A DNA stretch of 64,000 nt from Candidatus Zapsychrus exili (GCA_030765585.1 JAVCCJ010000121.1:7233-71232); one strand, 5' to 3'; shown: positions 16,782 to 64,000, counted from the stretch's first letter. The notes: generated from the sequence alone by a model not told the origin. Made by a program: numbers and translations.

Positions 16782-16873
16782 GCTAATCTAGGCGTATAGT
16801 TTTTTTTGTAGTAGAATTAATTGTAGAATTTAATCAGTTGAAAGTTAAATTTTATTTTAGGAGGATTAAACAA

Positions 16874-17245: not shown

Positions 17246-17296
17246 GAGTTTAGTTTAAGTACTAAGGTTTAAACTTTATTTAGGAGGATATAAAAG

Positions 17297-18289: not shown

Positions 18290-18305
18290 GAATAGGTAAA
18301 GAATT

Positions 18306-18647: not shown

Positions 18648-18684
18648 GGTAAAAGTTAAAACATAAAGGATAAAGGTACATAAA

Positions 18685-25848: not shown

Positions 25849-25860
25849 TAAGAGGAAAAT

Positions 25861-30254: not shown

Positions 30255-33200
30255 ATGAAATCAGCCGCGGAACAAAATAGAGAGCCAGAAGATGATAGAA
30301 AAGCCGACAGCTCAATTGGCAATATGAGCGAGAATACGGCTTTTACTCATCAACATTCTTATGTTCCTACCAATAGGACTTTCTTAAACTCTGAAGATTG
30401 TTCTGCTGATGCTCAAAATATTTCAAATACCCAACCACAAGAAGAACCAATTCCACATAAATCACGCTTTAAATCTTGGATTAAGACAGTTGCATTAATA
30501 ATAATATTGGTTTTTGTTCCTGAGCAAATTAGTTGGGCATTTAGCTATAATCCTCTTGTACTTTGGAAAGATAAGGCTACTGTTGCTTCACAGTATCTTG
30601 GTGATGGAAATACTATTGCAGCAGAGAACCAAATGACAGAAGAGCAAATAGTCTCTTTACGTGTGTCAGAAAGTGTTAGCCATTTTTTAAAACAACTTCA
30701 AAACAAAAATGCTCAACAAATACAATTACAACTTCCAAATCCACACAAATCAAAGCTAGTTAAGGATAATCAATATAATATATTAATTAATACTGATTTG
30801 GCTTTTAATGAGTCAAATATTGCTGAAATTGCAACTTGGTTAAGAGAACCTGCAATTCACCCATTAAATTGTGGCGTTTATGCTCTTAATGATATCCTTG
30901 CTAATTATGATGTTAAATTAAGTCTAGAAGAAATCTCAGTTATGTCTCTTTTAGTTGATTTAATCAACGATATCGTTCGCCCTGGCGAACCAAAGCTTAA
31001 AACATCTCTTTACGCGATAAACAAGATTACAGAAGCATACGGAATTAACTTAAAAGCAGCAAAGCTTGCACCAGCTGATATTTTTGATTTAGAGCCACCT
31101 TTTATCGCTAATTTTGATGATGAGCATTTTGTGACTGTTACAAAAGTAGACGATACAAGCGTTTATTACAATGATATAGGTCGCGCGTCATCAAGTTCAA
31201 GATTAGATTTCTTAGACCAAGTAACAGGTTTTGTTTTAGCTCCTGAGCTAGAAGCTCAAGATGATGTAAAATTTGAGTATGTCCCTGATGCAATGCAGGC
31301 ATTTATTTGGGGTTCAAAATGGCATGGTAATCTTGATAATCTTCCAGGATTGTACAGCTGGGGAGATGTTGCTATTGGAGCTGCTTTTCAAGTTGTTGGT
31401 CTTTTTACCGGTGGTCTTGCTAGTAGCGTATTAAGTTTAGGTGCAGGTAGTTTTCTAGGTTCTCTTACAACAGCTATTGCTTTAAGTGAGTGTTATGATG
31501 CAGAAACTGGTGCGGCAGATCAGGGTTGTTTAGATACAATGTTTGTTTTAAATATTGTAGGAACTTCAGCAATATCAGCCGGCAGTGGCGCATTAAATGC
31601 TGATAGCTTTGATTTAGGCGCTTTCGCAGGAGACTTTGCTAAAGGCGCTGTTGTTGGGCTTGGACAAGGGTTGATTATGCTTTATGTAGGTAAATTGCTT
31701 AATGATTTACTTGAAGATTGGGATGCGCCTGATGCTCTAAAACAAGCAATTATTGGCGCGGTTTCATCTGTTGTAGCAACAACTGCAATGGGCTTAGTTG
31801 TAGATGGCCTAGACGCTGCTCTTAAAGAAATGGGTGTCGGAGAAGGCGCTAAAGTTGATTTGTCTTTAAAGAGCGTATATGCCGGAGACACACAGGTAAA
31901 GGTAGAGCCCGAATGGGCAGTTTGGAAAGCAACGGCTATGGGTAACGTTTTATCCGGCTTAAACAAGGTTGTAACATTTATAGGAAAATATACTGGAATT
32001 TCATGGGCGTTAAATCAACTTAATAAAGGCTGGAACAAGCTAGTAAAGGGCATGATAGGCTCAAATTCAGGAGCTGCAAAAACTTTAACTGCTACAGGAA
32101 AAGCTTTTAACGGCATAAAAAAGGGAGTTAATTATGCGCTAAACGGAAAGTTTAGTCCAGTAACTTATGTAATCAAAGCTCTTGCGGTTATTCCAAGAAC
32201 TGTTAGAAATCTTATGTCTGAAGGTAAAAAGGTTTGGGGAGTAAAGCATCTAGTTTTTGCATTAGAACAACATAATTTTTTAAGACAAATGACAGTGTTG
32301 GCAGTTAGATACATTTTATCAGAAGGTAAAATTCTTGGAATTGATGATGGCAATAAAGAAAATAATGGAGATGATGGAGAAGACCGCGGAATAGCATTTG
32401 ATTCATTCCTTTCTCAAGCAATAGGCATGGGCGTTGGTATGTTTTATGATCATGTTTCTATTGGATTAGATAATCGTGATAATTTAACTAAAAGAACGGA
32501 AAATGAAATTGCACAAAAGAAAGCAGAGGCAGAAGGGTTAGATAAAAACGATCCAGAATATGGTGATTTTATACAGAACAATATTGTCTCAATGACAGGT
32601 ATGTCTTTAGAGGATATTTTCGCTAAACGAGCAGAGTTTGGTTTAAGCGAAAACAGTGATTTTGCTCAATACCAAGGAAAAAGAACTTCTGCTTTTATAG
32701 CAATACTTGGAAAGTCGGTAGCCTCAGTATTATTAGCTAAACATTATGATAAAAAGGAATGTGCAAGAGTAGATTGTAATGAAACTGAAAGACTTGGAGA
32801 AGACCCGAATAGAGATCGCATAGGCTTGCTTAAGTTCAGGGCAACGCAGTTTCTTATAGGCGGACTTATTGAGGGCGGAATTGCTATTTTAACTGAAAGT
32901 AATAGAAGGCCAGATGGTGCTGAGCTTACTCAAACAGATAAAAAAGTAGAGCTTGATAAAAAGATAATTAATAAATTAGCTAATAAAGATGCAGATAAAC
33001 TCGAGAATGCTTTAAATACAAGCATGATGTTAGTAAATGAAAAAGGAGAATTGATAGATAATCTTAATGCTACAGAGAAAACATCTAATGAAATGCTTCT
33101 AGCAGCAAAGAAAAAATATGAACAAGCTTATAGTGAAGGCGGCGGAGCAAATGGAGAAGGCATTGAGAAAGTTTTAGCAGCAGCAGGATTGTCAAAGAAA

Positions 33201-36200
33201 GAGTCAAAAGAATATTTGAAACAACGCGCGAAAGAATTAGATAAAACTAATGATGTTTCTAAGCTTTTCTTATTATTTAATGGCAACTTTGTAGCTAAAA
33301 CTATTCAATCGATGTATTCCGCTAATGGCAACAGTCCATATGGAATAGTTGGATATGATGATGGTGTTGCTGTTTATGATCAAAGAGGATTTGTAAGAGC
33401 TGATGAGGATGCATCGCCTACAGAAAAATTAATTTCAAGCATAGCTGCTCGTTCTTCCTATATTAATGAAATGGTTGGTATGTATGGAGGAATGACTCTT
33501 ACAAAGAGATTAATGGTAAGAGAGCAAAATGAAAAAATGGAAGCAGATATGCGCAGAACTAATGAAGTCTCATCAGCTGCTCCTATATCTGAAGAAGAGC
33601 TTGCGCGTCAAATAGGCGCTGCTCAGATGAGAGCAAATGTTAAAACATTAGATGTAATACATAATAGTAACAATTATTTCTTAGATGCGATCAATCAGTC
33701 CTTAGCAACAGCATTATTCTCACCTCAAGATAGCCCTATTTTACACGCACTTGATTCTTTAGCATTTGATTTTGTTGATGCATCAATAGAGCAACAAGCA
33801 CAGGCTGCCTGGGAAGATGAGAGTAAAAAACCAGATACAAATAAATTAGCATTTCTTCAAAACAAACGTCAAGAGCTTCGCGATGAGGTAGCAATGAATT
33901 CTGATGACAAGTTTGGTTATTCGCCATCTGATTCTGTAGATGTATCAATAGAACAACAAGCACAGGATGCTTGGGCAAAAGAGGGCAAAAAGCCAGATAC
34001 AAATAAACTAGAATTCCTTCAAAACAAACGCAAAGAGCTTCACGAAGAGGCAGCAATGAATTCTCCATGGTTAGGCTTGGGTATGGATTATAGATATCTT
34101 GCTAGCGAACAAATAGGCGAGGGAATAGATAGCAATAAAATTACTTATAAAATGAGTGAGAATTTAGTATTTAATTCAGGCAAGGGTATTTTGCTAGGAA
34201 CATCTCTTGAAAAGAAGGGTGATCTTTTAGAATATGGTTTAGAAAAGTTAAATGTTTATTATCAGGATGAAGTTGGTAAAGGAGATTATATTGGTGAAGG
34301 CTCTGATCGTGATTTTAGCGGAACAATAGTTAGAGATATTTCTGGCTTAAGCGAAATAGACAGAAGAGAATTAGGTTTTGATCCAGAAAAGATGAAAATT
34401 GCGACTGAAAATGATGGAGATAAAGAAATAGTTGCAGTAGGACTTGCACAAAAACTTAGACAAACAGATAGAAAAGAAGACGTATCTGCTCTTAATGAAG
34501 AGAAAAAGGGCAAAATCATTACTAAAATAGATGGTACAACACGTCTTGTTTTTGGTTATGAAGCAGAGCATTTAGCAGAACAAGGCAAGAAATATGATAT
34601 GACAGTTGATGTTGGTAAGTTTACTGTTAATGAAGAAACAGGCGACAGAATTCATTTATCAGCTCAGAGACAAGCTGCTCCTGATGCACAACTTTCAGAT
34701 AGTTGGGTAGTTACGCGACAAGATTTTAATGCAGCAACACCAAAAGATATAACAGCTACTACAATGTTTTTTGCTTCTCAGGGGGAAGTTATAGATGAGC
34801 AAGGCAATGTATTAGAACAGTATGTTGCTAGCATTAGTTCTGAAGATTGTGTTACAGGTTGCACAGATCCTAAAAAAACCTGGTATGTTAATCGTTCTCT
34901 TTTTGCAAAAGAAGGTGATAAAAAAATAAGTGATATGGATGATCTTGGTTTTGATACAAATCTTAAGACTTTTGCGAATAAAGATGTAAAAACAGAAATA
35001 GCAGCTCTTAAAAAAGATTATAAAAGAATTGATGATTCTACAGAAAAAGATGAGAACCGTTTAGCTGTAGTTAATACAATTATTGATCATGCAATTGAGG
35101 ATAAAGAGTCAAATCAAATCGCAAAAGAGCTTTATGGTTTCGCAAAGATGGTTGAAGAACATAAAGTAGCATCATCTCTTGAAATTGGAGCTTATACCAA
35201 TAATAAGGAAGGCTCTAACCAAGAAGGAGAAGAATTATATCTTGGAATAGCAAGATACAACACAGATGATAAGGGTAATGTAAAAGATACTTCAACAGTT
35301 CTTATTAGTGAACCTCAAATATATGATAAAAATGGCGCTGTTGCAACGACTAATTTTATTTATCAAACAGAACAAACAAGCGCTTTTAATGTGGGTGATT
35401 CTGCAGTTTATGGAAAAGTTGTTGATGGTAAAGAAACACTTGTTAGTGCAGAAGAAATAGATACATATAAAGATAAAAAAGGAATAAAGGGAGATGTTAA
35501 ATCAATTGCTGTTGTTCGTCAGGTAGCAAAAGGCGATATAGATCTTTCTAGCGCAGTTGAAATGGCAAAAGGCTTTGATAAAGATGGAGTTGATAAGTTT
35601 GGAGATACGCCAGAGAATTTTAATGGCAAAGATTATATGAGTTTTGTTGCTGCTTCAACAGAAGATGGCCAGACAGCTGTTTTAGAAGCAAGCAAATCTA
35701 AACTAGTTCAAGGATATTCTGAGATTAAAAGTTCAGTTAAAGTTCATTATGATCATGATTCTTATAAATTAGAAGCAAAAGCCAAAAAAGATTTAGATAG
35801 TGCAGCAGCAACATTAAATGATAACGATCAAAAAAATATCATTATAAATGGAAGAACAGATTCGTCAGGTACAAATCAATACAATGTGAAGTTAAGTTTA
35901 AATCGTGCGCTTGCAGCAAAAGATTATTTAATGGAGCAAGGTATATCAGAAGATAGAATAATAATTCGCGCTCTTGGAGAAGGAGAAGCTGATCAAAGTA
36001 TTGCTGAAAGCATCCGTTCTGATAAAGAGATTGGTCGTAAAGATAGAAATAGTTCTTTTGAGATAGTAGAGAAATCGCCTCTGGGAGATTCTAAGATTAC
36101 TTTTAGGGTAGATAAAGAAGGCTTTGTTAAGAGAGCTAGCACAAATTTCTATACCGCAGGGTTGGATAACGAGGGTAGCAGTATTGTTTATGATTTAGCT

Positions 36201-57200: not shown

Positions 57201-60032
57201 ACTGATGCTGGTGCTGCACTTGATGGAGAAGATTCAGTTCTTCGTGATATTGGTGGTGCTCAAGTTCATAAGTTAGTTGATGCATTTGAAGGTGAAAATG
57301 GCGCAATAGCAGTTGGTAATTATTTATTACCTCAATATACCGCAGATGGCGTAAATATTCCTCAAGCTATTCACAACTGGGTTGGCGAGACAATTGGAGT
57401 TGAGACAATTTCTTTAGATTTTTATAATATGATAATTGCAGCGAATTCAGCAACAGAGTATAAAGATTATAAATCAACTAGAAAAGCCTTCGATGCTTAT
57501 ATTAACAAAGGACAAGATTCAATATCAGCTGATCTTAGATTTGGAAAACAAACAGCAGTTATAGTAAAAGATGAAAATAATAATTTTGTTAAGATATCAG
57601 TTGATGGCGTTCAAACACTAGGCAATTATTCAGCAAGCGTTAATATAGAAGAATTAGCAAATCAAAATGTAATCTTTATTGTGTCTGAAGAAGATGTTAA
57701 AGCCGGCACATTTGAAGATAAGTTAGATGTAATATTTACAAAGCTAGCTGAAAACAGAGGCGTTGATCAGATAGCAATAAATGCTTTTAACAAAATTACT
57801 CTTGTAGATTTAGAAAGATATCCACCAGCAGGTATTAAATTAAGAAACTATGCAGAACAACAACAAGCAGCTCAAAGAGCAATGCAAGATACTAAAGAAG
57901 CTACAGATGGTGGATACAATGGATACACAGTTGCACAAGCAAGAGAGCAAATAAAGAAATATGAAGCATTAGGAATTACAATTGAAACTGTTAATCTTAA
58001 AAATGAAGTTAGTATAAAGGCTGCAATTGATAAAGCATTAGCTTTCTTAACAACACAAGGAAGAATAGATTATACTCGCGGACCACCAACAGTTAACCTA
58101 GTCAATTCTTCTGATATAACTTTTGCAGCATTTTATGAAGTAGATGACAACACCCTATATATAGAGAAGACAGTACTTAGCGATTTAGCATATGATTTAA
58201 CTTCAGTATTTGTTCATGAGCTTAATGGTGACACTCACGAAGAGAATATAATAGCTGAGAAAGCTTATAAATTAGTACAACAACAAGAAATAGAAAAAGC
58301 AACCGATGAAAGAGCAAAGGTAATTAATAGTGCAATTGAAAGAGCAATAAAGACAGGCGATTTTGATAAAGCTGAAGATATATACAGAGACGATCTTATT
58401 ATTAGATACATAAACGATAAAGATATTTTAACTGATAAAGAAAAAGAAGATATAAGGGCTATTTTAGCTCGTGAGCAACAAAAAAGAGCAAACAAAGTAA
58501 GATCAGAAAGCGGAATACAAGTTAGTAACAATATAGAAGTTGATTCTTACGGAAATGTAGCATCGTTTATTTCGCCATTACCTACAGGCGCATTACAACT
58601 TACAAGCAACGGAATATTTGGCGCAAGCAGAGCAAGAGAAGATGGGAGTCGTTATCTTCACGAAGGTGCAGATTTTAGAGCTGTTGTGGGAACAAAGACA
58701 TTCTCTATATTAGATAATGCTGAAGTTACTCATGTGGCTAATTTTAATACAGGCCGCGCTGGTAAATATGTAACAATTTCAAGCCAAATTGGTGAACATA
58801 AAGTACAAGTATCTTATATGCATTTAAGTTCTGTTGAAGTTGAGTTAGGTCAAGCTTTATTATTAGGCGATATTATTGGTTTAACTGGAAAAACAGGAAA
58901 TGCTAATAATACTGACGAACCTCATCTACATTTAGCGATTAAAATTGATGGTAAGCTTGTTGATCCTGTTAAATTATTTAATGGAGATGTTACATTTGCA
59001 TCGGATACAAGAAACGTAGCACCTATCTTTGGATTACAAATAAGTAATGCAGCATTCGATACTTACAAAGCTCATGATGCTGATGGCTTTTTATCTAAAT
59101 ATTTTAGTTCACGAGCAGATTTTGAGAAATTCGTTTTAGCTATTATTAGATGGGAAAGCAGTTTTGATGCTGATGCGACTAGTAGCGTTGGAGCAAGAGG
59201 TCTAATGCAAATTATGCCTGGTACTTGGGCTGAAGAAGTAGCAGAGCTAGGATATAATTGGACGGCTGCTGATATTACAAATCCATTTAAGAATGTACGC
59301 ATTGGTTCACGTTATCTTGTTGAGCAATTAAGAGAATTTGGTTCTATAGAACTTGCGCTAGCAGCTTATAATCGCGGACCTGGAAAAGTAGAAGATGCGA
59401 TAGCGGCTGGTTTCGCAGACGGCATACCTACAAGCAATGGAACAACGCATGATTATATAGAAAGAATTAAGAAAGTTTATAATGGTGGAATTTTATTAAC
59501 TAATTTCATTGCTAGTCCAGTTGATGCATTAACTAAATGGCTTGCGATAGAAGAGTATAGAAACAATCCAAGATCTTGGATAGAAAAAGTAGTAAGCGAA
59601 GAAGAGAATGGCTCAAACGTTATATTCCCAGTTGTTGATGTAATTATAACTGATAGAGTAGGTGAAAAAGAGAAACAAGCTCATTTAGTTGGATCACATA
59701 ATCTTGATGTGATTACAGATGAACAAGTTTATAACAAAGTTAAAACAATACTTGGGCAAAAAGTTCTTATGGATAAACAAGGTTCTCAAGCCGGAGTTGT
59801 TCTTGTTATAAGTAAGCGAGCATTGTTTAGTGGTGAAAGTAATGTAAGGGCTATAGTAAAAGATTTATTCTCAGAGCTTATAGGAGAAATGAAGATGCAA
59901 CTATATAAAATAGTCATTTGTTTATTTTCTCTAAATCTCCTGTTTACTTATATAGAGAAAATACTTCTGAAGAAAAATATAATTTATCAGAACTTCTTGG
60001 ATTTATTGTTCCTGATGAAGACGGTGATATAG
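30255..60032 (+). CDS. Giant multi-domain membrane protein (9,925 aa as called; probably the N-terminal ~88% of a protein of more than 11,200 aa). Contains C39-like peptidase, OmpA-like, two SecA-type DEAD ATPase modules, M50 protease, M23 peptidase, SLT transglycosylase and several TM clusters
   Basis: Single uninterrupted frame of 29.8 kb with coherent codon usage. The domain motifs are listed individually in the findings. Confidence 0.85.
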   Translation: MKSAAEQNREPEDDRKADSSIGNMSENTAFTHQHSYVPTNRTFLNSEDCSADAQNISNTQPQEEPIPHKSRFKSWIKTVALIIILVFVPEQISWAFSYNPLVLWKDKATVASQYLGDGNTIAAENQMTEEQIVSLRVSESVSHFLKQLQNKNAQQIQLQLPNPHKSKLVKDNQYNILINTDLAFNESNIAEIATWLREPAIHPLNCGVYALNDILANYDVKLSLEEISVMSLLVDLINDIVRPGEPKLKTSLYAINKITEAYGINLKAAKLAPADIFDLEPPFIANFDDEHFVTVTKVDDTSVYYNDIGRASSSSRLDFLDQVTGFVLAPELEAQDDVKFEYVPDAMQAFIWGSKWHGNLDNLPGLYSWGDVAIGAAFQVVGLFTGGLASSVLSLGAGSFLGSLTTAIALSECYDAETGAADQGCLDTMFVLNIVGTSAISAGSGALNADSFDLGAFAGDFAKGAVVGLGQGLIMLYVGKLLNDLLEDWDAPDALKQAIIGAVSSVVATTAMGLVVDGLDAALKEMGVGEGAKVDLSLKSVYAGDTQVKVEPEWAVWKATAMGNVLSGLNKVVTFIGKYTGISWALNQLNKGWNKLVKGMIGSNSGAAKTLTATGKAFNGIKKGVNYALNGKFSPVTYVIKALAVIPRTVRNLMSEGKKVWGVKHLVFALEQHNFLRQMTVLAVRYILSEGKILGIDDGNKENNGDDGEDRGIAFDSFLSQAIGMGVGMFYDHVSIGLDNRDNLTKRTENEIAQKKAEAEGLDKNDPEYGDFIQNNIVSMTGMSLEDIFAKRAEFGLSENSDFAQYQGKRTSAFIAILGKSVASVLLAKHYDKKECARVDCNETERLGEDPNRDRIGLLKFRATQFLIGGLIEGGIAILTESNRRPDGAELTQTDKKVELDKKIINKLANKDADKLENALNTSMMLVNEKGELIDNLNATEKTSNEMLLAAKKKYEQAYSEGGGANGEGIEKVLAAAGLSKKESKEYLKQRAKELDKTNDVSKLFLLFNGNFVAKTIQSMYSANGNSPYGIVGYDDGVAVYDQRGFVRADEDASPTEKLISSIAARSSYINEMVGMYGGMTLTKRLMVREQNEKMEADMRRTNEVSSAAPISEEELARQIGAAQMRANVKTLDVIHNSNNYFLDAINQSLATALFSPQDSPILHALDSLAFDFVDASIEQQAQAAWEDESKKPDTNKLAFLQNKRQELRDEVAMNSDDKFGYSPSDSVDVSIEQQAQDAWAKEGKKPDTNKLEFLQNKRKELHEEAAMNSPWLGLGMDYRYLASEQIGEGIDSNKITYKMSENLVFNSGKGILLGTSLEKKGDLLEYGLEKLNVYYQDEVGKGDYIGEGSDRDFSGTIVRDISGLSEIDRRELGFDPEKMKIATENDGDKEIVAVGLAQKLRQTDRKEDVSALNEEKKGKIITKIDGTTRLVFGYEAEHLAEQGKKYDMTVDVGKFTVNEETGDRIHLSAQRQAAPDAQLSDSWVVTRQDFNAATPKDITATTMFFASQGEVIDEQGNVLEQYVASISSEDCVTGCTDPKKTWYVNRSLFAKEGDKKISDMDDLGFDTNLKTFANKDVKTEIAALKKDYKRIDDSTEKDENRLAVVNTIIDHAIEDKESNQIAKELYGFAKMVEEHKVASSLEIGAYTNNKEGSNQEGEELYLGIARYNTDDKGNVKDTSTVLISEPQIYDKNGAVATTNFIYQTEQTSAFNVGDSAVYGKVVDGKETLVSAEEIDTYKDKKGIKGDVKSIAVVRQVAKGDIDLSSAVEMAKGFDKDGVDKFGDTPENFNGKDYMSFVAASTEDGQTAVLEASKSKLVQGYSEIKSSVKVHYDHDSYKLEAKAKKDLDSAAATLNDNDQKNIIINGRTDSSGTNQYNVKLSLNRALAAKDYLMEQGISEDRIIIRALGEGEADQSIAESIRSDKEIGRKDRNSSFEIVEKSPLGDSKITFRVDKEGFVKRASTNFYTAGLDNEGSSIVYDLAPKASLLADALILLAADVADALGPEENKIQEIVTSNATSAKAAQLDGALVAIVPDIRAYELGKNDLLHIVDGEIIAPNEIRFDDYAPDPTSTPKRDSKGNVVAGSFIKDTVATKQGDGTYAYSSADGKVGKAASLTVDQLVVTKFGVVGVDEAAIVSDKPLILGNNSQWLASSSDATLEVAFGSKTTQALDSKGNIVGPVEEVNYNGGYRIDESKAIVLRSKVGEGALLGSIYINNEGAPKVLDKEAFEEESLEDNKKYVSATTQSETVGSLSVAGISTESKWTATPVVDGKINKYAADEDGVLESALVGNRIVSLHGNAKENNMTFKDMKDKANVGFISKSGRMILTPNNNNISGGWSKDANDQLSFNVGIKDTKKMNGSEEGKGTALGLQQENVLVYNKGIGNILYQGSEQTSVDPVTGLVGANRFVTMNLTGDMGVNQGTVLASKVDLAQGNIEGQVRNHKDLDAPSIFSAKLNTFDIKDSEIILKVSQELGDVSQLPVAADFAYSKEGKGEAPVQTPANLAALKGVENNPNVLMLEVSKEAGQDLTKVLGTPTSSVLNFAFSTDGLKFNPKAEGSVYSNFDRVSVLSGVEAPTVILKREATPTESNSTPAIQFIADANNNVKMQWKGIWNIQRDSAYTNHSTKWMSADGKSEAPLVLNTTIIGEEITASAGWNDTAVWNWAAGAPKMRGTITDKDGNSVSSLGIQRVDGAGAGWTIQARGSKDGSTLVAPNHVNVEENGYVDPDAKKDVDKTVSNKFFKLPQAQSYDVYKDGSREDGLVEVRLNQGFPEGVETPADFEIKSGQSINLLVQDHDGLSSVSTTENMVGTDVRKMIYHAKAPEQEKAAVEKEVSEQETDLNKFSMPIENFVAKQDNTRLAKVNIPVIIDNFITPEPNVDKITVQEWRVERAPETMVVENPYSVLTLDGSRAIERDVWGSKVGTIPIKETVSFEPGDYQSFGDVNKTVLITKTAATSYNIDYSNSDKITATKSSEGLNFVDYSGEMSFIKGRTSKEIEQIKENDITEWFPNATEGKEKVSVQMDSDAITSEAMQIKRYDPKTGAHVTDRYLAGMTAIKGNDGIIRSQFTTEASLYNADTKEIGNAGNLLYDAAASFLLDSVETDKGKKAVFKFVPEGQDPTVFTATSKGGIETVNTIYTDPATIKEANEANSSGALLPEAIAQTLDPNNTGSIQRVYQYQGKKLVNEYFAVTRAKEDSSKVEKFYVDGKYANPNNANELKSLIASELNLDLKETKTSTLQDFSYSKTIEDDAEVVYVSPQGKVYLRMVTGRTIIETPNSYSSSSTSTSEQHDVFAYDLVTGDVEEVDVEKTFVDVVTDKDGAKRYALKYLVPESRTRYSIGLPISYKPAGVQGIEFKDEDGKEIWADINYIKSGQLNGVGEEKQFVAVSIQDAGWSKNKRNRIIDLSTGREITREGFIETPEGGKWDLNRYKGKIVEMVKAKGFWGDVGDVAWNGLRGEGKETYVKNMLMDWGMSYASAGALDVSNPSVAGVVTTALMFTGVGSGLGLIGKGAKAGSTAARVYSISRAALKTGLIFGGIDTAAYVGIGALTGQDLNFSDGLAAFAGGVKMGATMTLGITGLGAVSGRIANSINAVNGVAGTGKGFKFVSKTYKGFGKMAEWKQAAILNGSSGAAVNVTRGMVANYYENGGELDYSLRSFAIDATAGAIISVALGGVGSKVMKGSFNTKQLLGNNMIHYGLVGLGGETVSTGIFSDKEMTWTRAAGSFAMGAIGGLVFRSTWIPEMMGVKPAEIIGETAKVTEGVTEGATSLFRNIKNPLKLTKAAQGVESGATVLNFSKLRTIGTLTGLGVGAGAGMAAMDARVHAKQDARKAGFKEGTKAFDSFVSKETSNNFRSWKTAKYMGAGALAANVMFFGRRAIQMKGRAKLLGTHSNKRITLPLIADEPHLIASLSLLGAADFAMIMPAWGALDSVIYTGLTGGNLEEGFYHSFQQKDVDGNDLGVFSNLAVHSIGGAKLGARLGPVLGIAQMPLSALGKKSALAPKSISKFSANKSSGLSISKILSSPTAHSMPVTVAQLATVEVLAEKVLENTYFKTAAENKADTLYNSHLEETKIMTGAYPTTTKAQFREEYAKNKIKEDAGQIAFASLLFKPSSMPGAEPETGGKGNKGSTAEAKIETPPNKPSDNALSADAQIKLSTKQTNIDQAPVAKPEKSMLSRMTTAVDYIGSKFKGHNNNILRQKIGTQSLEQNVIITSSSKQYVKAAKEARRRGTESKDKEYRDLDEIDQVFNMSMDSLRESIEADGRTKFKVKPKQLALVYSVIEHAIKGEKLLAIEPVSGGKTVLTAAIVDSLAKKGKTVVVIVPSGKLVDQYMNSALFENGRFTTPQTRNNGKDAVPEALKKGMVYFMTDAQAKDFVLHKNKTGENFFKDAQGFYDEAHNLFTMSDKIIGGGSERAAKIVAENSSQAKRLQRQYDTDTELARITVDLVREVGGEVEYLVENKNSDRMSHQFKEQATYRNGKNVWAVKDANGKLSIVKKGTAGAEILRPKDIVLERFNKSVKEKKLIRFKSDHSKALLEDFAGLAKSAFQEARIRTKNKQGNLESAPLDAYTGEARWGEIFSDPTGRNTKARALVALERVLALEREGNVNLESYIKSAINSTEHKARGADFLDMFDNVTLLTGTAGEVKGMAKMKNINMVQFRPEYTLKDIGPENVTFETSGKSKIDMIVDIIRDEINLAKKAGDNFVLITTNSREAGVLGARKARQTQNLKDKGYKVEYVSDAKLAERIKEINNSNAKEKIVIVTQVIEGISVEAKGSGVVMETAVLSAADTTQALARMNTFAEAKDSSRTKAKAKVKLHIDDHLILTAEKQKILEAQGKLDQARKTNSSDAIKNAEANLDLIWREMMHSLTEFKTNQGLATISTTVVEGVKSKVAKESVQQQLRSTTHGILSDIRQEAHKDIALDYMNKTGKTSAQISLSDNKGFEIFSSSKEGDEISVDNINNVGLVATEEIELIHGAKLKAGQTLDYETGFVYEAPQNEFDIKDFSQIKSEYLPVGVISITREDVNNPKANYNPVVNTVVNGKKAAAIELSDLGKNTLLDRQIVYAENSDGKIDQVAYRVKPIISNVTVGAALSAININDDSYEIDNDGFAIVPIETFNKAFSKENALDNSVFDGIGFKFAQDITIHEGFKEKRSDAITGRTRKSKNKVAKDALKLSIQKTVETPEIAIALPDGQGGTKTQRIKMDDLRELQTRMASSKSPDSDVNLYFADYDSEESKAKTNKALNNLVRFSNPTTQDDKDWVASLNTEEVVHYDTAAKSLKTRGISPVEFAMRFQHQMGGKNFGGHTGSGGQDALGNKRDQQNVYVNESATHIFDYYQDIERDKGFEAASDTEKMMETVLHEQIGFANRDFSHYQNVEVRRVWLKATEAVKQMKENNVDTVELQLVDGSGYEIYEAIKENGKTIGAQPIKLVAQNSDVKLRHLNTTLAKGETLDYKASSKTASLDTGSIKYKSVDNQEDKIVSKLKVGQDIVNITDPNLNGHTKLAQRAVADVEDAASILNKIDLSLNGTRKEFALDRHIKTIEQLRNTNNVFISKNAGAMSTDDGRMIVGRLDNNNNRLVLNSEANGEMADIYLRGQKIVENVPLRVAAIISEVDRKHDAGFEVYKAKNDAPAQSKASDNALTADTFHPANITTRKQIQGMMRDGVDQALMTLRAGGYDSKAKIMNFTKANLPDSFNKRVKDFAMRARVRATTARERAQKDTFGSVIHASSGRVSTLEWGLHEAGYKTDEAMVAKIADIVAGDPRRVEGDIAVYDFSDVKGTTRLDNYELHVDTTRNFDDKSMLSIFADAPQGQTIAWLGENIAVVNTDISVGGESELARSWSKIEKKLGNQNFDEQLAMVMQFDIIDLNKLVALAVEDANTEEAILARAKGLSVDAPIYVAVMRDEWVFFAVVDGKLVGEPQKAEDISNGLVLMSKESIPGHVVAKFSEKYVVAQSVLNPETSIPTALGKGQWAPIEGQLASMSATAMLSVVPSVAKHEKIVVVQSDAGQAEKTAIEFALAIPEKQIYVVNHTKTNQWFVKVTVADGEANISNVFITADKLENGVVVVDAAMLSEAAFDILRANGAIISKAAMPDSFGGEDNVSAKAVKAVFNTDYRQKTIDQRLKTKEAAEEPVIVVPVAPRNDAIDMPAMVPAATIPVTVPMLMSSGVGDNSPNVELADAAMTSGPGNNSPNYKDIIAKSEELIADSEKTIAISQKIRAASEEIRANSRAIRKKIATSGSDDAMLAAAKTDDIMQYLPYDRKIENDVLVKMKQDVGRIVDIINETNRKIEPEFSVRDDQVKMAEALIEGKVVVAENAAGKTLAKFIAGLANIVNGRQATILTRDENDSAKWILEAPEEGFGANYSQMLAATMKEYELESSGIVDLDGLMKRYDDALKKRRTIVANKEINEIKGQILRALQSKDMLKIVSINARGHMPNRFLDDDLILQGIKSIKDDGDTILDEADDLLLLETTYIQSQSQSVKKNSNLRKIVSQAKKIFDQVKIGTDEEDAIKVAASIQDFEKLNKANKKAVWYSQGSGLIGAPDLLISDAVYESFKEGTLPTMIEGVIRGKIEEIGTRLAADLNKGELVPVTRTGELQSDMIFSQIPYKVAQTLKINEILKARGDSQLKLNNITVTGDTVRENPISEMLQGKGRVVGATANKAGAEYIIQAKTGSTEGIVTIGEESNVFKQAALPTKNYRHVDITGQAGGLVDQLASMAEKSLADNKGTLIFTSDHVQLRKIAEDLKKRFPNTEVGVIDEDTKPEQIEKYRNEIGTHKGNSTPRIVVSLPRVAKQVSFKGNLDVIVSDGASWPKADLTHAVNRNNRSEKLELRLGRSYVLVDKEALNKKFEFVRNLVPEIKGLSKADDVNKLVDEIEKAGAGDTLALSKKHRLVAEFLQAQQRSSSHKHTILTLFRNNRQTEPMQDLYDSRVGSDKKIVQEILFKERAGLYGNTMQKLHDNPFTGEEWVREASRQSWEAAVREWNDLLELAKTKGGSAELLARVEEQIDLMRDRQTNEPGEYLNVVANGKVLNQFADVLKDANKEQNKEVRLRKLEAGHKGILMAAKYLGEGIIPTRVTAFFKADNIKSVASKTDKSKDMTYVEFVKGLTSEEKNKFNLSMYGFVVELKGEYTLARRGHQLISMLDAFENLSQQDMDKLGATVGSHTPFTIAVQLVQADIVDIKEAKQLASMVNFWLENAGQTEHIVSLSEEQQSNFLSKLKKLTLLISDKTYTLLASIGEEIGIIDNVDMLTQIKSRSDAITQALEGVKDLEAQKAKAGLLGIRFNGKLKTAVKTLVELVNPTIAKMASLQNEIASDKLDIGPIEFAAILLNSDELRNIEDISRAEKTLIYIGETIGYKQLDKKQINFVASLLEESLVLPAVLLVESESISDAQREQHIRVAANKIDQNAKVKKQDLQMLFYQMLSNPHKFGLTASAAKKKVRKFNWKLDKADTFKKIRTTLGNELASRLNPKLGFLDKFSVSDNEEFKLVSGRIDWTDEQAEQEYNKLADKEKEIQEKTEELVQKLKEKQEETKGNVQESVKEVKKASFLNRFKPTIVFEGNNMAEKVLKAGIKIGSVTLGWMLVPSVLIASLVFGTSGLGIIGMVLVSATIHEIGHIVAARILGGSQTYQGMGVYGPIAQATLNTRGLSKNAIRIIAAIGPITNILVGTVALAFGVDPFTAYQGIEFWGVPVNLVTINLVFLAAVNLLPIPAFDGLTVITGKNTKTSMASGSGKAFYSSIPLYEFVLYVASVLSLRGVKRRGNLEEEIALQKPLAMTDNEKHTQQSAIFESQDKIEAINLNIELEKAVMPEIPAMPDRSMPFDPLGIPVAPMIPLGAPALMLLGSVSGSGPGGKAPVSMVEQQREFGQNEADIKVAQAQTGSEVGFLLAFALDLKSRMNFSSTGLSPNAISAAILFRKGSGRANVVARIIVNVVHVVANAVNVVSSNGSKPLISSDFGHKGKNNGEPGSRSVSKSRAIEVKAGSKAVVAKLVRNTLVSMIEYFKQVAVRVKLAMKVQDDRTETRLRESRTTTVAKAVNVTNEAEVNAVKAIVIEEAQVVSVAQVASASNVKATVAEGLESVSRSALLRSMISSSATMAGIVLFTIRDEVTQGVGELYAQVVFRGVKNVSSETSLEYNDAQGASNIKIRIVSLAKNIYRSLRVREESGDAEPGASPVYKFVPTINTQGNQALGVPVFLSANIITIGSLNSIHFLLGAAAIAVMLAMLAYAIYRGAPNTIHVNSIKSNTDNSLINKARAYIRARVTYKAVLFGSLNHNESQATDSKQGGTLWSASIQSIQEVLAKIQKAYKSHILSNIQTQAALSQPQITKTRIEQKSILLDKMNVFMNAVDLKALGMSFKAKTSDFLQSLLKKLSATKMYHVIQLIVQAYLTKKEVIKNSNEVEVVSSVAGGFSAPLLTKQFVEQIANNGEEKYLVQASNGVEVVSSVAGDFLTTLLAGINRFKVAFATVAILLLNTAVKAQSAIADTAAVVVDSVAGGLNTTAAVTDLSSPTSEFFAQIGNITSESVLIMIAAALIASVVTWFVIYVASKKLAVNISRSGALTLGFAVAFSGLKLFTIAAPIIKEVFATTTSLGMLEHFATMAPVVLIPVFALMLGISLVAWNIQRIYKSKTTAIASPYNFNTLSKAEKQVYKKEFKKQYKPLRMSFKEFGRFVSARREIVISLTVIGAIVGVLTSTSTLLTMVSAGVQGALVGFVSVYLLSVLWNFFFGYVWKNTQFVEFVEDNRGRFSSDETIIQEVKNLEEKLSNTGVLENSIYVIKDLLISLTLRFPVTGGIIQFVIGRGFLALAGSYVAGPITALISPSITTTSILGFWPAVVSFLKGIYLDTTIGGFIRLALMVIFLNLKKIPAYYNMTFKLFTGEAINTFNLKSHLRELHKKLPLHILAAFVSVASIVLAPAFGIIYLANISAEANARDVNKYAKVIGDMGKDFWVGMWNMWLISMEIGLITDAGAALDGEDSVLRDIGGAQVHKLVDAFEGENGAIAVGNYLLPQYTADGVNIPQAIHNWVGETIGVETISLDFYNMIIAANSATEYKDYKSTRKAFDAYINKGQDSISADLRFGKQTAVIVKDENNNFVKISVDGVQTLGNYSASVNIEELANQNVIFIVSEEDVKAGTFEDKLDVIFTKLAENRGVDQIAINAFNKITLVDLERYPPAGIKLRNYAEQQQAAQRAMQDTKEATDGGYNGYTVAQAREQIKKYEALGITIETVNLKNEVSIKAAIDKALAFLTTQGRIDYTRGPPTVNLVNSSDITFAAFYEVDDNTLYIEKTVLSDLAYDLTSVFVHELNGDTHEENIIAEKAYKLVQQQEIEKATDERAKVINSAIERAIKTGDFDKAEDIYRDDLIIRYINDKDILTDKEKEDIRAILAREQQKRANKVRSESGIQVSNNIEVDSYGNVASFISPLPTGALQLTSNGIFGASRAREDGSRYLHEGADFRAVVGTKTFSILDNAEVTHVANFNTGRAGKYVTISSQIGEHKVQVSYMHLSSVEVELGQALLLGDIIGLTGKTGNANNTDEPHLHLAIKIDGKLVDPVKLFNGDVTFASDTRNVAPIFGLQISNAAFDTYKAHDADGFLSKYFSSRADFEKFVLAIIRWESSFDADATSSVGARGLMQIMPGTWAEEVAELGYNWTAADITNPFKNVRIGSRYLVEQLREFGSIELALAAYNRGPGKVEDAIAAGFADGIPTSNGTTHDYIERIKKVYNGGILLTNFIASPVDALTKWLAIEEYRNNPRSWIEKVVSEEENGSNVIFPVVDVIITDRVGEKEKQAHLVGSHNLDVITDEQVYNKVKTILGQKVLMDKQGSQAGVVLVISKRALFSGESNVRAIVKDLFSELIGEMKMQLYKIVICLFSLNLLFTYIEKILLKKNIIYQNFLDLLFLMKTVI
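30790..31200 (+). other. Peptidase C39-like (papain-fold Cys peptidase) domain of the giant protein
   Basis: PLNCGVYALNDILANYDVKLSLEEISV ... DDEHFVTVTKVDDTSVYYNDIG parallels the C39 pattern (..CGxAxL..vsleEl.. / ..NHFVVLykid..vyiaDP). Confidence 0.5.
33781..34065 (+). repeat. In-frame tandem duplication (2 x ~123 nt, period 162 nt = 54 aa) inside the giant gene
   Basis: SIEQQAQAAWEDESKKPDTNKLAFLQNKRQELRDEVAMNS / SIEQQAQDAWAKEGKKPDTNKLEFLQNKRKELHEEAAMNS, ~85% nt identity. Confidence 0.8.
35740..36070 (+). other. OmpA-like peptidoglycan-binding domain of the giant protein
   Basis: IIINGRTDSSGTNQYNVKLSLNRALAAKDYLMEQGISEDRIIIRALGEGEA matches the OmpA_C pattern (GHTDxxGsxxYNxxLSxxRAxaVxxYL...Gi...ri...GxGE). 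Confidence 0.65.
43080..44700 (+). other. First SecA-type DEAD/SF2 ATPase module of the giant protein
   Basis: KPKQLALVYSVIEHAIKGEKLLAIEPVSGGKTVLTAAIVDSLAKKGKTVVVIVPSGKLVDQY (SecA motor pattern Q-L-iGg..L..Gki-aEM-kTGEGKTL-a-l-ayLnAL-GkgVHvVTvND-La-rD). DEAH-like box FYDEAHNLF. Later TTQALARMNTF. Confidence 0.6.
49150..50830 (+). other. Second SecA-type DEAD ATPase module of the giant protein
   Basis: DDQVKMAEALIEGKVVVAENAAGKTLAKFIAGLANIVNGRQATILTRDENDSAK. DEAD box TILDEADDLLL. Motif-VI-like LTHAVNRNNRSEKLELRLGRSYVLV. Confidence 0.65.
53000..53470 (+). other. Peptidase M50 (site-2 protease-like) intramembrane metalloprotease domain of the giant protein
   Basis: HExxH in a TM helix (VSATIHEIGHIVAARILGG) and NLLPIPAFDGLTV (S2P pattern NLLPIPxLDGG), flanked by hydrophobic helices. 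Confidence 0.6.
58560..58990 (+). other. Peptidase M23 (LytM-type peptidoglycan endopeptidase) domain of the giant protein
   Basis: YLHEGADFRAVVGT (HxxxD), GKYVTISSQIGEHKVQVSYMHL, TGNANNTDEPHLHLAIKIDGKLVDP (HxH). Confidence 0.7.
59060..59470 (+). other. SLT-type lytic transglycosylase domain of the giant protein
   Basis: AIIRWESSFDADATSSVGARGLMQIMPGTWAE (catalytic E-S plus GLMQ), ..NVRIGSRYL.., LALAAYNRGPGKV (AYNxG). Confidence 0.7.
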
Positions 60033-63000
60033 AAGCACCAGCTGATGCAACTTACAATCCTATTTATAACAGAATTAGTGGAAAGATAGTAGAAAAGCTA
60101 GATACTGAAGATGGAATTATTATAACTGTAAAAGATGGAGAGAAAGAGGCTTCTTATATAGTTGTTGCAACTCATTTAAATGAAGACGACATAGTAATGG
60201 AGGGAGCTCTTTTAGGTGTATCTTTTGATAAACAAGCTTCTGATGAAACTTTAGAAGAACAAATAGAGATGCAAATAGCAGATATAAGAGAAGGCATAGA
60301 AGATAAAGAAGAAAGAGTTGATGAGATTTTAGATGATGTTGCAAAATTCTTATCTACAAAAGCTATGTTTGTAGATCAAGGATCATTTGAGTATGAAACA
60401 TTGGTTGAGAAATTAAAAAACAATGATTTAAGTACAAGATTAGCTGTTGTATCAGCTTTGGTTAATGCATATGGCGTTGATCCTAAAAATACAATTAATG
60501 GTCTTTTTGCAAGAAATAGCGAGTTAAGAGGCGAAGATCAAACAACTAATTTATTAGCATATGTAGGTCTTAATTATGTTCCAGGAAATGCAGTATTTAC
60601 AAAGGGTATTAATTTAGGCGGAAATAATAGTTTAGATATTGGTCTTGCAATTAATAGTCGTTATTCACAATTCTTACAAATTTTAAATATGACATTAGGA
60701 TATGAAGACCTTATTGCGAAACAAGGCGTAGGTGCTGTTTTAGGATGGATATTCTATGTAGAGGCTGCAGCAGAAGTATTTAATGGATTTCAAGGAATGA
60801 TAACAGGTTTTTCAGATAGAGGTGGAATTATAAGACCAATAAAAAGAGGAGTATGGACTGCTGTTTATGATGCGGCAGAAGAAAAAGGCGATCCTAGGAT
60901 AGTTGAAAAAGACGGAGAAACCATACTTAAGAAAGAGACTAAATCTTATTCAGTACATGTATCAGCTGCCAGCGCTATTAAAGATCTTATGAGAGAAACT
61001 TTAGGACATGTTATTCCTTCATTATTTGGTGATCCAGAGAAAGTTGCTATTTGGGAAGCAAGATACCCAATTTATCTTCCAGGAAATGTTCAACTAAGAT
61101 TCCTTAAAGAAGGTATTGCAAATACTGATGAGAATATTATTTATTCAATACAAAGAGGACGTGAAGGGGAGAAAGCAGAAGGACTTAAGGGAGATGCATC
61201 TGAGTATATCTTTGGCTATAAGATTGATTTAAACAAAACAACAGTGACTGAAGAGAATCCTTTAGGAACTAAAGAATTAATGTTTGCTTCTCGTATGTTT
61301 GCCAAAGATAAAAATGGTGAGCTTTTACTTAAAGAGTGGTTAGAAAAACCATATAACGCTATGTATAATAAAGAACCTGGCGAGATGTATATAGTTCCTT
61401 CAAGACATACATTAGAGAATGTTGGCGATCTAAGAGACGTTGCAAGGGGTTATGATTTTGATGCTGATGGAGAAAAAAGAACAATACTAGCTGCAGCAAT
61501 TCATCCTACAACTGGTGTTGTTATGAGAAAGTATTATAAATATGATGGTATACCTGCATCAAATCCTGTTCCTGCATTTGAGCGTGATGGTATGACAATA
61601 TATGTTGCTGAAAATGAATATACTTATGAAGACATAAAAGTTAAGTCTAATCAAGATCCAAGTTTATCAATAGGAACAGTAGATGATAAGCCAATTCATC
61701 CATATATTATATATAGCAAGCCTTTAGCTGATATAGGTTATTGGTTTGGTGCAGAGTCAACAGATAATACAACAGCACATATTATGAAATTTAGCAAAGT
61801 AGCAACAAATGAGTCAGTGAATATGTATGAATATGCAGGTACTCAAGAATGGACTGAAGATGTAAAAGATATTAAAACAACTGAATTGGTTTGGAAAAAA
61901 TATGACGACAAAAAAGAAACTCCAATTAGAACAGCTGTTAAAATGTTTAACCCTAACAAGGGTGTTGTTGATACAGATAAAATAACAGGTGAGGATAAAT
62001 ATTCAGGAGATTATACAGAAATTACATTACCTGAAGGTTTAATTATAGTTGATGAGAATACAGGCAATATTACAGGCGCAGATGAAATAGGAATTATCGT
62101 TGAAAAACCAGCTGAGGTACCTATTGCGGTTGCTCATCTTATTGATCGCTCAGTATATTTATACACTCAAGAAGAAGTTGATGCGCTTTATTTACATGAG
62201 GCAGGTAAAGATTTAAAAGTTAATTTTGTTTGGGATTTTGCTGGAGCAGATTCTAGAAAAATTAATGTAATAAGAAATAATTCTAATCATGATGATCAAA
62301 CTGTAATGATAGTTGGTGGTCTAGGTCTTGATACAAAGGTAGACGAAAATGATTCAAAAGATCAACCTGAGGTAGGAATTTTAGAATATAGCAGAGCTAG
62401 CAGCCTTGAATATCAAAAAATATTTACAAAAATGGTAAACAATAAAGCGTTAGGTATGATTACTCGCGAAGATGGAACTATTGAGCTTATAACAAAAGAT
62501 AACTTCCCTGTTACAGAGCAGATAATAGAAAGTGTACCTGAGAAAGAATCTGATGATTTAGCAAGATATGCAAGAAAAGACCTTATGAATGTTGGCGAGG
62601 TTGAAGGTTTAATATCTATAGCTGGCATAGATGATATAGATGGAGAAATCAAAGCGCTTATAAATAAGACATTAGGATTAGAAGCTGATATATCAAGTAA
62701 AGATGCAGCTTATATTAAGGCAAAAGCAGAATATGAAAAAGATTTAGATCAGCTTGTATCAATTGAAGCTGTTTTAGGCCAAGAAAGTTTCTTTGCAAGA
62801 ACACATGCAATAAACGCTATGTTAAGAGGTTTTGAAGAAGAACAAAAGAAATTAGATGATGCTATTACAATAGGCGAAATTATAGCAAAGATGTCTGTAG
62901 GTGAAAATTCTGAGACTGGCGAACTTCAAATTAATTATAAAGATTTTATGACAGATTTAAGAGAAGAAGCAGTAGATAGAAATATGGATATTAATGATTT

Positions 63001-64000
63001 ATTAGAAAAGAAGATTATAAATTATTTTAATTCACAATTCTTTAAGAGTAGCGATGTTGCAGCTCTTGAAGAAGAAATTAGAAAAGCACAAGCTGCTCTT
63101 AATAAACTATATCATTTTAATGAAAATGATCCATTTGTAACATTTGATGAAGCTTATTTACATGTATATGGTCCTTGTGGAGTTGTACCAGGAACACTTG
63201 TTCAATCAGCAGATTTATTACTTCCAGCAGCGCAAATATCATTAGATTCGCTTCAAATGAATTTAACTACTGCAGAAGCTCTATTAAGCGATATAGAAGT
63301 AAATGGCTATGCTGACAATAGTAATACTTACAACAATATAGTCTTTACTCAAGAGAAGATATCAGAAGGCTTTACATATGAAAAAACAGATGACGGACAA
63401 TCAGATATATTATGCTCAACTATGGGTCGTATACAAAGATTAGAGCATGCTGTTATAAAGTGGCAAGCTGAATTAGTTAAAGCACAAAGTAATGTAGAGT
63501 GGAAAGCAATGGTAGAAGAGAATTTAGCACAAACTCAAAGTTGGTTAGCTTTAGAGAAAGACACATTTATTTTATTGCTTAAGATGAGTGTTATTTATTA
63601 TGATCCTACAGGTTTATTCTACACCGAAGCAAAAGAGATGCTTAAAGATGTTATTGCTCTTGCAGAAAGAAGAGTAGCATTAACATCAGAAGATATTAAT
63701 TTATTAGAGAGAGCAAAAAATACTAATATTCCAAATTATCAAGGACTATTCCTTATACCTCTAGAGTGGGACGAAGCAGAACTAGGCCCTCGCGATTCTG
63801 ATGTTTATACAATACCAGAAGTAGAAGCATATTGGATGTCTCGTCTTGTTGCAATTGATATGGAAATAAGAGCAATGCAAGAAATTATAACGAATAATGA
63901 AATAAGTGATGAAGCAAAGGCGCTGTTCGTACAGCTTATAGCTAATTTAGAACAAGAAAGAGACGACTACTATACAAATCATGCTAAGCCTGAGTTAGAA
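59909..64000 (+). CDS. Open frame (-1 relative to the giant ORF) running from 59909 to the window edge with no stop and no credible start codon; most likely the 3' continuation of the giant gene
   Basis: Frame 2 translation (NSHLFIF...ELLGFIVPDEDGDIEAPADATYNP... to ...YYTNHAKPELE) is protein-like for 4.1 kb. Inserting one A into the A4 run at 59907-59910 joins it in frame to the giant ORF (…MQLYKNSHLF…). Confidence 0.6.

Follow-up and report, generated by a model that had tools for sequence, protein, structure and literature searches.

The 64,000-nucleotide (nt) stretch of Candidatus Zapsychrus exili DNA analysed here (GCA_030765585.1 JAVCCJ010000121.1:7233-71232), hereafter called the window, carries a very large open reading frame (ORF) downstream of a Tad-like pilus locus that resembles a type II secretion system (T2SS). 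Taken as a whole, the evidence makes it probable that this is a giant-protein gene of an Omnitrophota-like bacterium, that it belongs to a published class, and that its product attacks peptidoglycan.

The giant open reading frame

A single plus-strand frame at positions 30255-60032, of 29,778 nt and 9,925 amino acids (aa), had been claimed in the original prediction made for the window, and an ORF scan reproduced it exactly (Table 1). On neither strand does another ORF of at least 150 aa overlap it. A chance origin of the frame is excluded because, by simple arithmetic, about 7% of random codons are stops at a guanine-plus-cytosine (GC) content of about 35%. Each 5-kb segment of the giant ORF, like the frame downstream of it, has a codon usage that correlates with that of the upstream genes (r = 0.89-0.94; out of frame, 0.19-0.32). 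GC, GC at third codon positions (GC3), GC skew and tetranucleotide profiles were homogeneous along the ORF and matched those of the flanking genes. The composition shows no sign of a chimera across the giant ORF.

No internal repeats were found in the giant protein apart from one 162-nt duplication, and a tandem-repeat scaffold architecture was ruled out on this ground. The duplication, the sole sizeable repeat in the 34 kb, encodes the repeated sequence ...SIEQQAQ.AW....KKPDTNKL.FLQNKR.EL....

Table 1. Positions of features in the window (aa, residues of the giant protein; E, expectation value; cut-offs are those of Pfam, in bits).
Feature	Position (nt)	Strand	Details
HAMP-PAS sensor	606-2321	+	
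Secretion ATPase (T2SSE) with N-terminal PilZ domain	2711-4114	+	
Rotamase_2 peptidyl-prolyl isomerase (PPIase)	7275..8210	+	First gene of conserved upstream secretion/pilus locus; synteny with locus L001
RcpC/CpaB-like protein	8223..9068	+	
Secretin, CpaC/RcpA-like with T2SS-T3SS_pil_N	9201..11087	+	C-terminal TonB_C
ParA/CpaE-like + T2SSE (CpaF/TadA-like) fusion ATPase	11115..13274	+	
Seven Flp/class-III-signal pilin-like genes	16295..19014	+	Starts 16295, 16518, 16838, 17297, 17855, 18306, 18685; motif K-[GA]-Q-x-x-x-E-Y
Eighth pilin-like gene	24386-24730	+	
Two T2SSF (TadB/TadC-like) platform proteins	24991..26754	+	
Giant ORF	30255..60032	+	ATG start; 9,925 codons without interruption; last ~40 codons (from ~59,910) probably out-of-frame read-through
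N-terminal hydrophobic anchor	30474..30530	+	aa 74-92, after 73-aa hydrophilic tail and K/R-rich HKSRFKSWIK; hydropathy only
Peptidase_C39-like domain	30867..31238	+	aa 205-328; E 8.3e-9, 35.8 bits, cut-off 22
Hydrophobic cluster 1, Gly-rich	31368..31802	+	aa 372-516; five candidate segments
Tandem duplication	33763..34064	+	162 nt, 1.9 copies, 85% identity
OmpA-like peptidoglycan-binding domain	35748..35987	+	aa 1832-1911; E 1e-18, 68 bits, cut-off 27.2
Hydrophobic cluster 2	40728..42035	+	aa 3492-3927; between OmpA-like domain and ATPase modules
P-loop ATPase module A	43062..44894	+	aa ~4270-4880; GGKT 4301, DEAH 4398, TGTAGE 4643
P-loop ATPase module B	49176..50954	+	aa ~6308-6900; AAGKT 6327, DEAD 6472, GATAN 6668
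M50/site-2-protease-like module	53010..53459	+	aa 7586-7735; E 1.4e-4 (sub-fragment), 21.7 bits, below cut-off 27.2
Hydrophobic clusters 3 and 4	53010..57062	+	aa 7586-7955 and 8099-8936; ~17 candidate segments
Peptidase_M23 domain	58656..58967	+	aa 9468-9571; E 6.9e-14, 52.2 bits, cut-off 28.7
SLT lytic transglycosylase domain	59124..59405	+	aa 9624-9717; E 2.3e-23, 82.4 bits, cut-off 21.3
Frame junction	59906..60032	+	Downstream-frame stop TAA (59906-59908) to giant-frame stop TAG (60030-60032)
Downstream open frame	59909..64000	+	1,364 codons, no stop, ended by window edge; protein-like codon usage

Peptidoglycan-directed and protease domains

Domains were searched with Pfam on two offset tilings of the giant ORF at the curated cut-offs, with support from NCBIfam. 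Hidden Markov model (HMM) matches above the Pfam cut-offs were obtained for C39, OmpA-like, DEAD/ResIII, M23 and SLT domains, and the predicted C39-like Cys peptidase, OmpA-like domain and C-terminal pair of M23 and SLT were all recovered in this way.

The catalytic motifs of the C-terminal pair are present. In the M23 domain the two zinc motifs, HxxxD and HxH, appear as HEGAD at aa 9469 and HLH at aa 9557; the SLT domain has RWESSF, which holds the catalytic Glu-Ser pair, GLMQIM and AYNRGPG at aa 9632, 9649 and 9704. Both domains matched proteins in PDB: M23 matched Peptidase M23 6jmx (1.5e-12) and ShyA (1.4e-7), and SLT matched Slt 6fbt (1.3e-13) and Slt70 1qsa (2.8e-12). The best NCBIfam names, which are weak domain-level matches far below the family cut-offs, were the flagellar-assembly lytic transglycosylase BB0259 for SLT (1.7e-23) and the cell-shape peptidase Pgp3 for M23.

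The OmpA-like domain contains GRTDSSG...LSLNRA, whose D and R would contact peptidoglycan. Its NCBIfam matches were to the Pal, MotY, TssL and PorE families. In the C39-like domain, candidate catalytic residues were assigned by eye to the Cys in LNCGVYAL (~aa 206) and the His in EHFVTV (~aa 291); a phmmer search of this region against PDB gave no match.

An M50 motif set had also been predicted. Both motifs, HEIGH at aa 7626 and NLLPIPAFDG at aa 7720, lie in hydrophobic segments, and pairwise BLASTP gave two matches to E. coli RseP in the same order (8e-5 and 0.009); the Pfam score, in contrast, fell below the cut-off (21.7 vs 27.2). An AlphaFold model of the region computed without an alignment had a mean confidence (pLDDT) of 38.0. 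On the motifs and the RseP matches we accept aa 7586-7735 as a putative site-2-protease-like intramembrane metalloprotease module. Like the known site-2 proteases (Pfam M50; E. coli RseP, B. subtilis SpoIVFB), it has HExxH in a hydrophobic segment and NxxPxxxxDG about 94 residues further on. It differs from them in being part of a giant protein, in lacking PDZ and CBS domains and in its Pfam score, which stays under the cut-off. The compact motif spacing presumably resembles that of SpoIVFB-type enzymes.

ATPase modules

Two P-loop modules carry ATPase motifs (Table 1). Pfam DEAD/ResIII matched module A at aa 4270-4409 (~1e-7, above the cut-off). HMM support for module B was weak (DEAD, E 0.017, below the cut-off), and its AlphaFold model without an alignment had a pLDDT of 35.6. 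From Walker A to DExD/H to the TGTA-like motif, the spacing is 97 + 245 aa in module A and 145 + 196 aa in module B. Motif order and spacing are similar in SecA (about 104 + about 182 aa in the E. coli SecA consensus), and in DEAD-box helicases motifs II and III are only about 30 aa apart. The distance from DExD/H to TGTA in the modules therefore leaves a long insert at the place where SecA has its preprotein-binding domain.

Statistical similarity to SecA was not obtained by any of the methods used (Pfam, phmmer, BLASTP, hhalign). Neither SecA_DEAD nor SecA_PP_bind of Pfam gave anything in modules A and B even at E<=10, phmmer searches of both modules against PDB gave no matches, and comparisons with E. 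coli SecA (BLASTP, hhalign) and with a SecA alignment (hhalign) were not significant. That alignment was built from a search with E. coli SecA and held only enterobacterial sequences at least 89% identical, so that the profile was nearly without diversity. The SecA scaffold and wing domains were not detected in the modules, and no secA gene was found in the 160 loci retrieved. Of the two divergent SecA-type DEAD ATPases in the original prediction, module A is backed as a DEAD/ResIII ATPase and module B weakly so, while the term "SecA-type" is backed by motif spacing alone. We infer that the modules would fit the "divergent SecA" domains of West-Roberts et al.

Membrane segments

A Kyte-Doolittle hydropathy scan gave 25 candidate hydrophobic segments in five clusters, as compared with 9 segments in a shuffled sequence. 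By this measure the giant protein has the predicted N-terminal tail with a transmembrane (TM) anchor, a 73-aa hydrophilic stretch followed by hydrophobic aa 74-92, and more than the four clusters of TM helices that had been the predicted minimum. The C39-like and OmpA-like domains precede cluster 2, the ATPase modules lie between clusters 2 and 3, the M50-like module lies within cluster 3, and M23 and SLT follow the last cluster. The clusters thus separate the peptidoglycan-directed domains (OmpA, M23, SLT) from the ATP-dependent modules, and from this placement the two groups of domains could occupy opposite sides of the membrane.

The upstream pilus locus and neighbouring DNA

The Tad/T2SS-like pilus locus that had been predicted next to the giant gene was found, with its core components at 7275-26754. 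As in known Tad/Flp pili, RcpC/CpaB, a secretin, CpaE/TadZ-like, CpaF/TadA, TadB and TadC proteins and Flp pilins are all encoded upstream. Unlike in those systems, the CpaE- and CpaF-like parts are fused, the secretin carries TonB_C, there are eight pilin-like genes, and three large proteins with no domain are interspersed. A DUF192 gene also belongs to the locus. HMM matches of the pilins were weak; the motif K-G-Q-x-x-x-E-Y recurs in the eight small ORFs, and homologues occur in a second relative locus, L002. No prepilin peptidase (TadV/CpaA, Peptidase_A24) was found among the plus-strand ORFs scanned in 1-27 kb, and it may be encoded elsewhere in the genome.

TonB_C on the Tad-type secretin spans aa 548-625 (E 2e-13), and the L001 homologue aligned over residues 29-411 only; the fusion may be specific to the lineage. 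The three large proteins (13923-15905, 19103-20773 and 21073-24306; 660, 556 and 1,077 aa) have no Pfam domain. The 1,077-aa protein gave only a sub-threshold ApoL match, and at the matching position L002 carries ORFs of 800 and 1,050 aa.

Before the pilus locus proper, the HAMP-PAS sensor and then the PilZ-T2SSE ATPase suggest control of the pilus machinery by cyclic di-GMP. A 2-hydroxyacid dehydrogenase, a CN-hydrolase and a malate/lactate dehydrogenase are also encoded there on the plus strand.

Between the pilus locus and the giant gene lies the sole minus-strand gene of the window, which encodes a nuclease-like protein with DUF1016_N and SNase (27141-28010). It stands at a local drop in the otherwise strongly positive GC skew, and a 35-nt direct repeat (26850, 27096 and 27231) flanks it; the segment 26850-28010 may be an inserted element. 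The following 2.2 kb, just 5' of the giant gene (28011-30254), contain no ORF of 100 aa or more and no Rfam or tRNA matches. Dispersed repeats occur there, of 73 nt at 28245 and 28655 (two copies, 85% identity) and of 66 nt at 28828 and 29474 (two copies, 76%), together with nested inverted repeats at 29066-29313 that include a 27-nt arm with 93% complementarity (TTTTCCTTCTCCCCTTTGGGGAGAAGG).

GC skew was positive in every 2-kb bin of the whole window (1-64000), and the genes, with the one exception just named, lie on the plus strand. This is consistent with a position of the window on one leading-strand replichore. No Rfam or tRNA matches were found anywhere in the 64,000 nt.

Relatives of the locus and of the giant protein

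Relatives of the fusion ATPase were sought in a scan of one genome per species, and 598 were confirmed. The best were from two Candidatus Omnitrophota metagenome-assembled genomes (MAGs), with 63% and 50% identity. The other full-length matches did not exceed 44%; the fusion is widespread, with such matches at 36-44% in Bdellovibrionales, Chloroflexota, Actinomycetota, Acidobacteriota and Firmicutes MAGs. No record with exactly the sequence of the ATPase was found. Seven consecutive genes recur in L001 in unchanged order, and the pilus genes are found in L002 as well; both loci stop short of any giant gene of their own. The ATPase matches and the seven-gene synteny support the origin of the contig from an Omnitrophota-like bacterium, an affinity that had been suggested from the literature on giant proteins; the class would probably be Gorgyraeia (Velamenicoccia in Seymour 2023).

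The giant protein itself gave no such relatives. Among 5.8 billion proteins, a word-indexed search gave no homologues of aa 4216-6982 or of the downstream 1,350 aa, and a full HMMER search with module A, covering 1.84 billion representatives, yielded only two matches, both marginal and uninformative. Scans of metagenome contigs gave nothing for the downstream part and generic SLT domains only for the C-terminal part. No independent copy of the frame junction was found in these searches. In the regions searched (aa 4216-6982, the downstream 1,350 aa and the C-terminal part) the protein appears to be a sequence orphan. This agrees with the literature, because giant Omnitrophota ORFs are described as "poorly conserved" with few domains, and in the catalogue of Nielsen and Lui (2026, bioRxiv 10.64898/2026.06.07.730766) 80% of the clusters of proteins of at least 10 thousand aa (kaa) are singletons.

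Proposed role of the giant protein

The giant protein would be polytopic, crossing the inner membrane many times, with its membrane clusters dividing it into compartments. An outward-facing OmpA-like domain would bind peptidoglycan, outward-facing M23 would cut peptide cross-links, and SLT would cut glycan strands. The likeliest target would be the wall of a bacterium, host or prey, that is gripped by the Tad-like pilus; a bacterial rather than an archaeal wall is suggested because M23 and SLT both act on murein. The ATPase modules must be cytoplasmic because they need ATP, and they may supply the energy with which the external segments of the same protein are exported or moved; West-Roberts et al. 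propose this role for SecA-like domains. The polypeptide may be processed by its C39 and M50 proteases. The OmpA, M23 and SLT set gives unusually direct support to the peptidoglycan-attack hypothesis.

Several points weigh against this account. Relatedness of the ATPase modules to SecA is not demonstrable with the comparisons above. The topology comes from a crude hydropathy scan, and the parity of the segments is beyond the reach of such a scan. Continuity across position 59.9 kb and the assembly as a whole are taken from the assembled sequence. The protein is assigned to its family by architecture, gene context and taxonomy, since no homologue of the giant protein was found. The domains of the published Archaeovorins (glycosyl transferase, methyltransferase, glycosyl hydrolase, SAM-methylase, NUDIX; also GGDEF) were not found in the two Pfam tilings, and neither were dockerin and TSP3 repeats. 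Finally, the M23/SLT/OmpA set does not itself tell the producer's own wall from a foreign wall. The predicted fit of this set to digestion of a prey wall holds as far as the domains and their catalytic motifs go.

The same protein could act on the producer's own wall, SLT and M23 opening a local gap and the OmpA-like domain fastening both the giant protein and its neighbour, the Tad-like machine, to the sacculus of the producer. Such opening of a cell's own wall is the task of dedicated lytic transglycosylases in flagellar assembly and in type III and type IV secretion. We regard this role as possible though clearly the less likely one. The best SLT and M23 names given above (BB0259 and Pgp3) point in its direction, OmpA-like domains usually tether envelope machines of the cell itself, as in the Pal, MotY, TssL and PorE families, and the giant gene adjoins a trans-envelope pilus locus. 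Complete peptidoglycan synthesis is retained in Omnitrophota, according to published work. The best-match names, however, come from weak domain-level matches far under the family cut-offs, and the published context, with expression up on attachment and a predatory-looking lifestyle, favours contact with a host or prey. Roles at the own wall and at a foreign wall are not mutually exclusive.

Somewhat doubtful is a polyprotein, translated once and then cleaved by its own C39 and M50 modules or by other proteases into a peptidoglycan anchor, ATPases and lysins, so that the giant form would be transient. The protein brings along two protease modules whose motifs are intact; it lacks internal repeats, and its mixed domain content is operon-like. 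West-Roberts et al. (10.1101/2023.11.21.568195) raise the same option for C39 and S8 domains; they also note that C39 domains may be inactive chaperone-like modules, which speaks against it, and cleavage sites were not identifiable here.

A more elaborate form of wall attack, a self-exporting envelope machine, seems improbable in all its parts together. Two extremely divergent SecA-like modules would thread the protein's own external segments across the membrane, and M50 and C39 would release or activate a peptidoglycan-attacking head made up of M23, SLT and the orphan region of at least 1,350 aa after them. This head would be delivered along with the Tad-like pilus and breach the murein of a bacterial host. 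Such a machine, if real, would be the bacterium-directed counterpart of the archaeon-directed Archaeovorins.

Attack on peptidoglycan, the preferred reading, gives the locus its interest. Attachment and wall digestion have been proposed for giant Omnitrophota proteins, yet most of these have few recognisable domains. Here one reading frame joins a peptidoglycan-binding domain with both classes of murein-cutting enzyme, catalytic motifs present. A short, tractable protein with the binding domain and both cutting domains would therefore make the cell-wall-attack hypothesis directly testable. The ATPase modules between membrane clusters, together with the embedded site-2 protease, offer a concrete model for export and processing of giant proteins.

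Frame junction and probable continuity of the gene

A second frame, bringing the protein above 11,000 aa, had been claimed in addition to the giant ORF. This frame is indeed open from 59909 to the end of the window; the length is conditional, since ">11,000 aa" presupposes an indel or a frameshift within one gene as the cause of the frame change, and the uninterrupted ORF has 9,925 aa. Relative to the giant frame, the downstream frame is shifted by -1, and it shares 124 nt with the end of the giant ORF. In a codon log-odds scan trained on the giant ORF, the coding signal switched from the giant to the downstream frame at about 59,890-59,950, with no non-coding gap. Homopolymers in the overlap are AAAA at 59907, TTTT at 59925, AAAA at 59958 and AAAAA at 59973. 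No Pfam domain or homologue was detected for the downstream frame (59909-64000). One gene with a 1-nt assembly deletion near 59,907-59,928, encoding at least about 11,240 aa and ended by the window edge, is the most likely explanation; its full length would probably exceed 34 kb.

Two separate genes, with the giant protein ending at 60032 (9,925 aa) and another gene starting in the other frame, are unlikely. Both frames are formally open and candidate starts exist, although the only canonical ones in the downstream frame are TTG 59918 and ATG 60197. The lack of a Shine-Dalgarno sequence is uninformative because its usage is irregular in the window and many genes have no clear one. The overlap would have to be 115 nt, however, and the protein-like sequence of the second frame starts 5' of ATG 60197. 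The giant-frame signal, moreover, fades about 100-140 nt ahead of its stop, where the other frame opens without a gap, and homopolymers of the kind that cause indel errors stand at the switch point.

A programmed -1 ribosomal frameshift would link two overlapping frames in the -1 relation seen here, but we consider it very unlikely: no X XXY YYZ slippery heptamer, the canonical signal, was found in the overlap, and an indel in a 4-nt homopolymer is the simpler account. A chimeric join of unrelated sequences that stayed in frame by accident has hardly any probability either, for although a metagenomic origin is likely, the frame is broken once at 59.9 kb and no identical protein was found on record elsewhere, 29.8 kb without a stop codon cannot come from random joins, the ORF is even in its codon usage, GC, GC3 and GC skew and resembles the flanking genes in them, no long repeats able to mislead an assembler were found, and the architecture agrees with the published class.

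Comparison with known giant proteins

Giant proteins with many TM regions and SecA-DEAD domains beside T2SS-like loci in Omnitrophota, mentioned in the original prediction, are on record as described there. The class is typified by a protein of 39,678 aa from Velamenicoccus archaeovorus LiM (Kizina et al. 2022, as cited in 10.1101/2023.11.21.568195). West-Roberts et al. 2023 (bioRxiv 10.1101/2023.11.21.568195) curated 46 giants, each above 30 kaa, with an N-terminal C39 or S8 domain near the signal peptide or first TM segment, many TM regions, divergent SecA-like domains (SecA_DEAD and SecA preprotein-binding domains in "most"), occasional SLT and an upstream secretion locus, and proposed prey adhesion and wall digestion for them. 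The upstream locus comprises gspD/E/F-like genes, RcpC, a Rotamase_2 PPIase and small class-III-signal-peptide genes, and the downstream neighbours are small pilZ, solute-binding or glycosyl hydrolase genes (10.1101/2023.11.21.568195). Nielsen and Lui 2026 (10.64898/2026.06.07.730766) counted 916 Omnitrophota proteins of at least 10 kaa, or 5,761 including public MAGs; C39-only and SecA_DEAD-only were the two largest architecture clusters of the 916, and Tad/T2SS flanks were described.

The protein described here is like the giants of West-Roberts et al. in its C39 (aa 205-328) next to the first membrane segment (aa 74-92), its many TM regions, its SLT domain, which some of them share, and its DEAD-like P-loop modules with a long insert. 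The upstream locus (7275-26754) agrees point by point and in the same order, and the phylum, Omnitrophota, is the same. It is unlike them in being much shorter (9.9 to at least 11.2 kaa, compared with more than 30 kaa) and in the failure of Pfam SecA_DEAD and SecA_PP_bind to match. Its OmpA-like, M23 and M50 modules are unmentioned in the main text of 10.1101/2023.11.21.568195. The published pilZ genes lie downstream of the giants, whereas here a PilZ domain is carried by an upstream ATPase (2711-4114).

The protein is also like those of the Nielsen-Lui catalogue in membrane-anchored topology, Tad/T2SS flanks, C39 and lack of sequence relatives, and probably in size class. As to size, the threshold of that catalogue is 10 kaa; the uninterrupted ORF gives 9,925 aa, and about 11,240 aa or more would be reached only if the frame change is an indel. 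The main text of that preprint does not contain the combination of C39, OmpA, two DEAD-like modules, M50, M23 and SLT. With none of their characteristic domains found, the giant gene appears to lie outside both named subtypes (Archaeovorin and Dockerin-type).

The combination had been thought to be no characterized family. The OmpA-like/M23/SLT/M50 set is absent from the main text of either preprint; the type of locus has already been published. Because a C39 N-terminus, many TM regions and an upstream secretion locus are known together, the novelty is modest. The giant gene is an additional member of the published class (Kizina 2022, Seymour 2023, West-Roberts 2023, Nielsen and Lui 2026) and not a new category.

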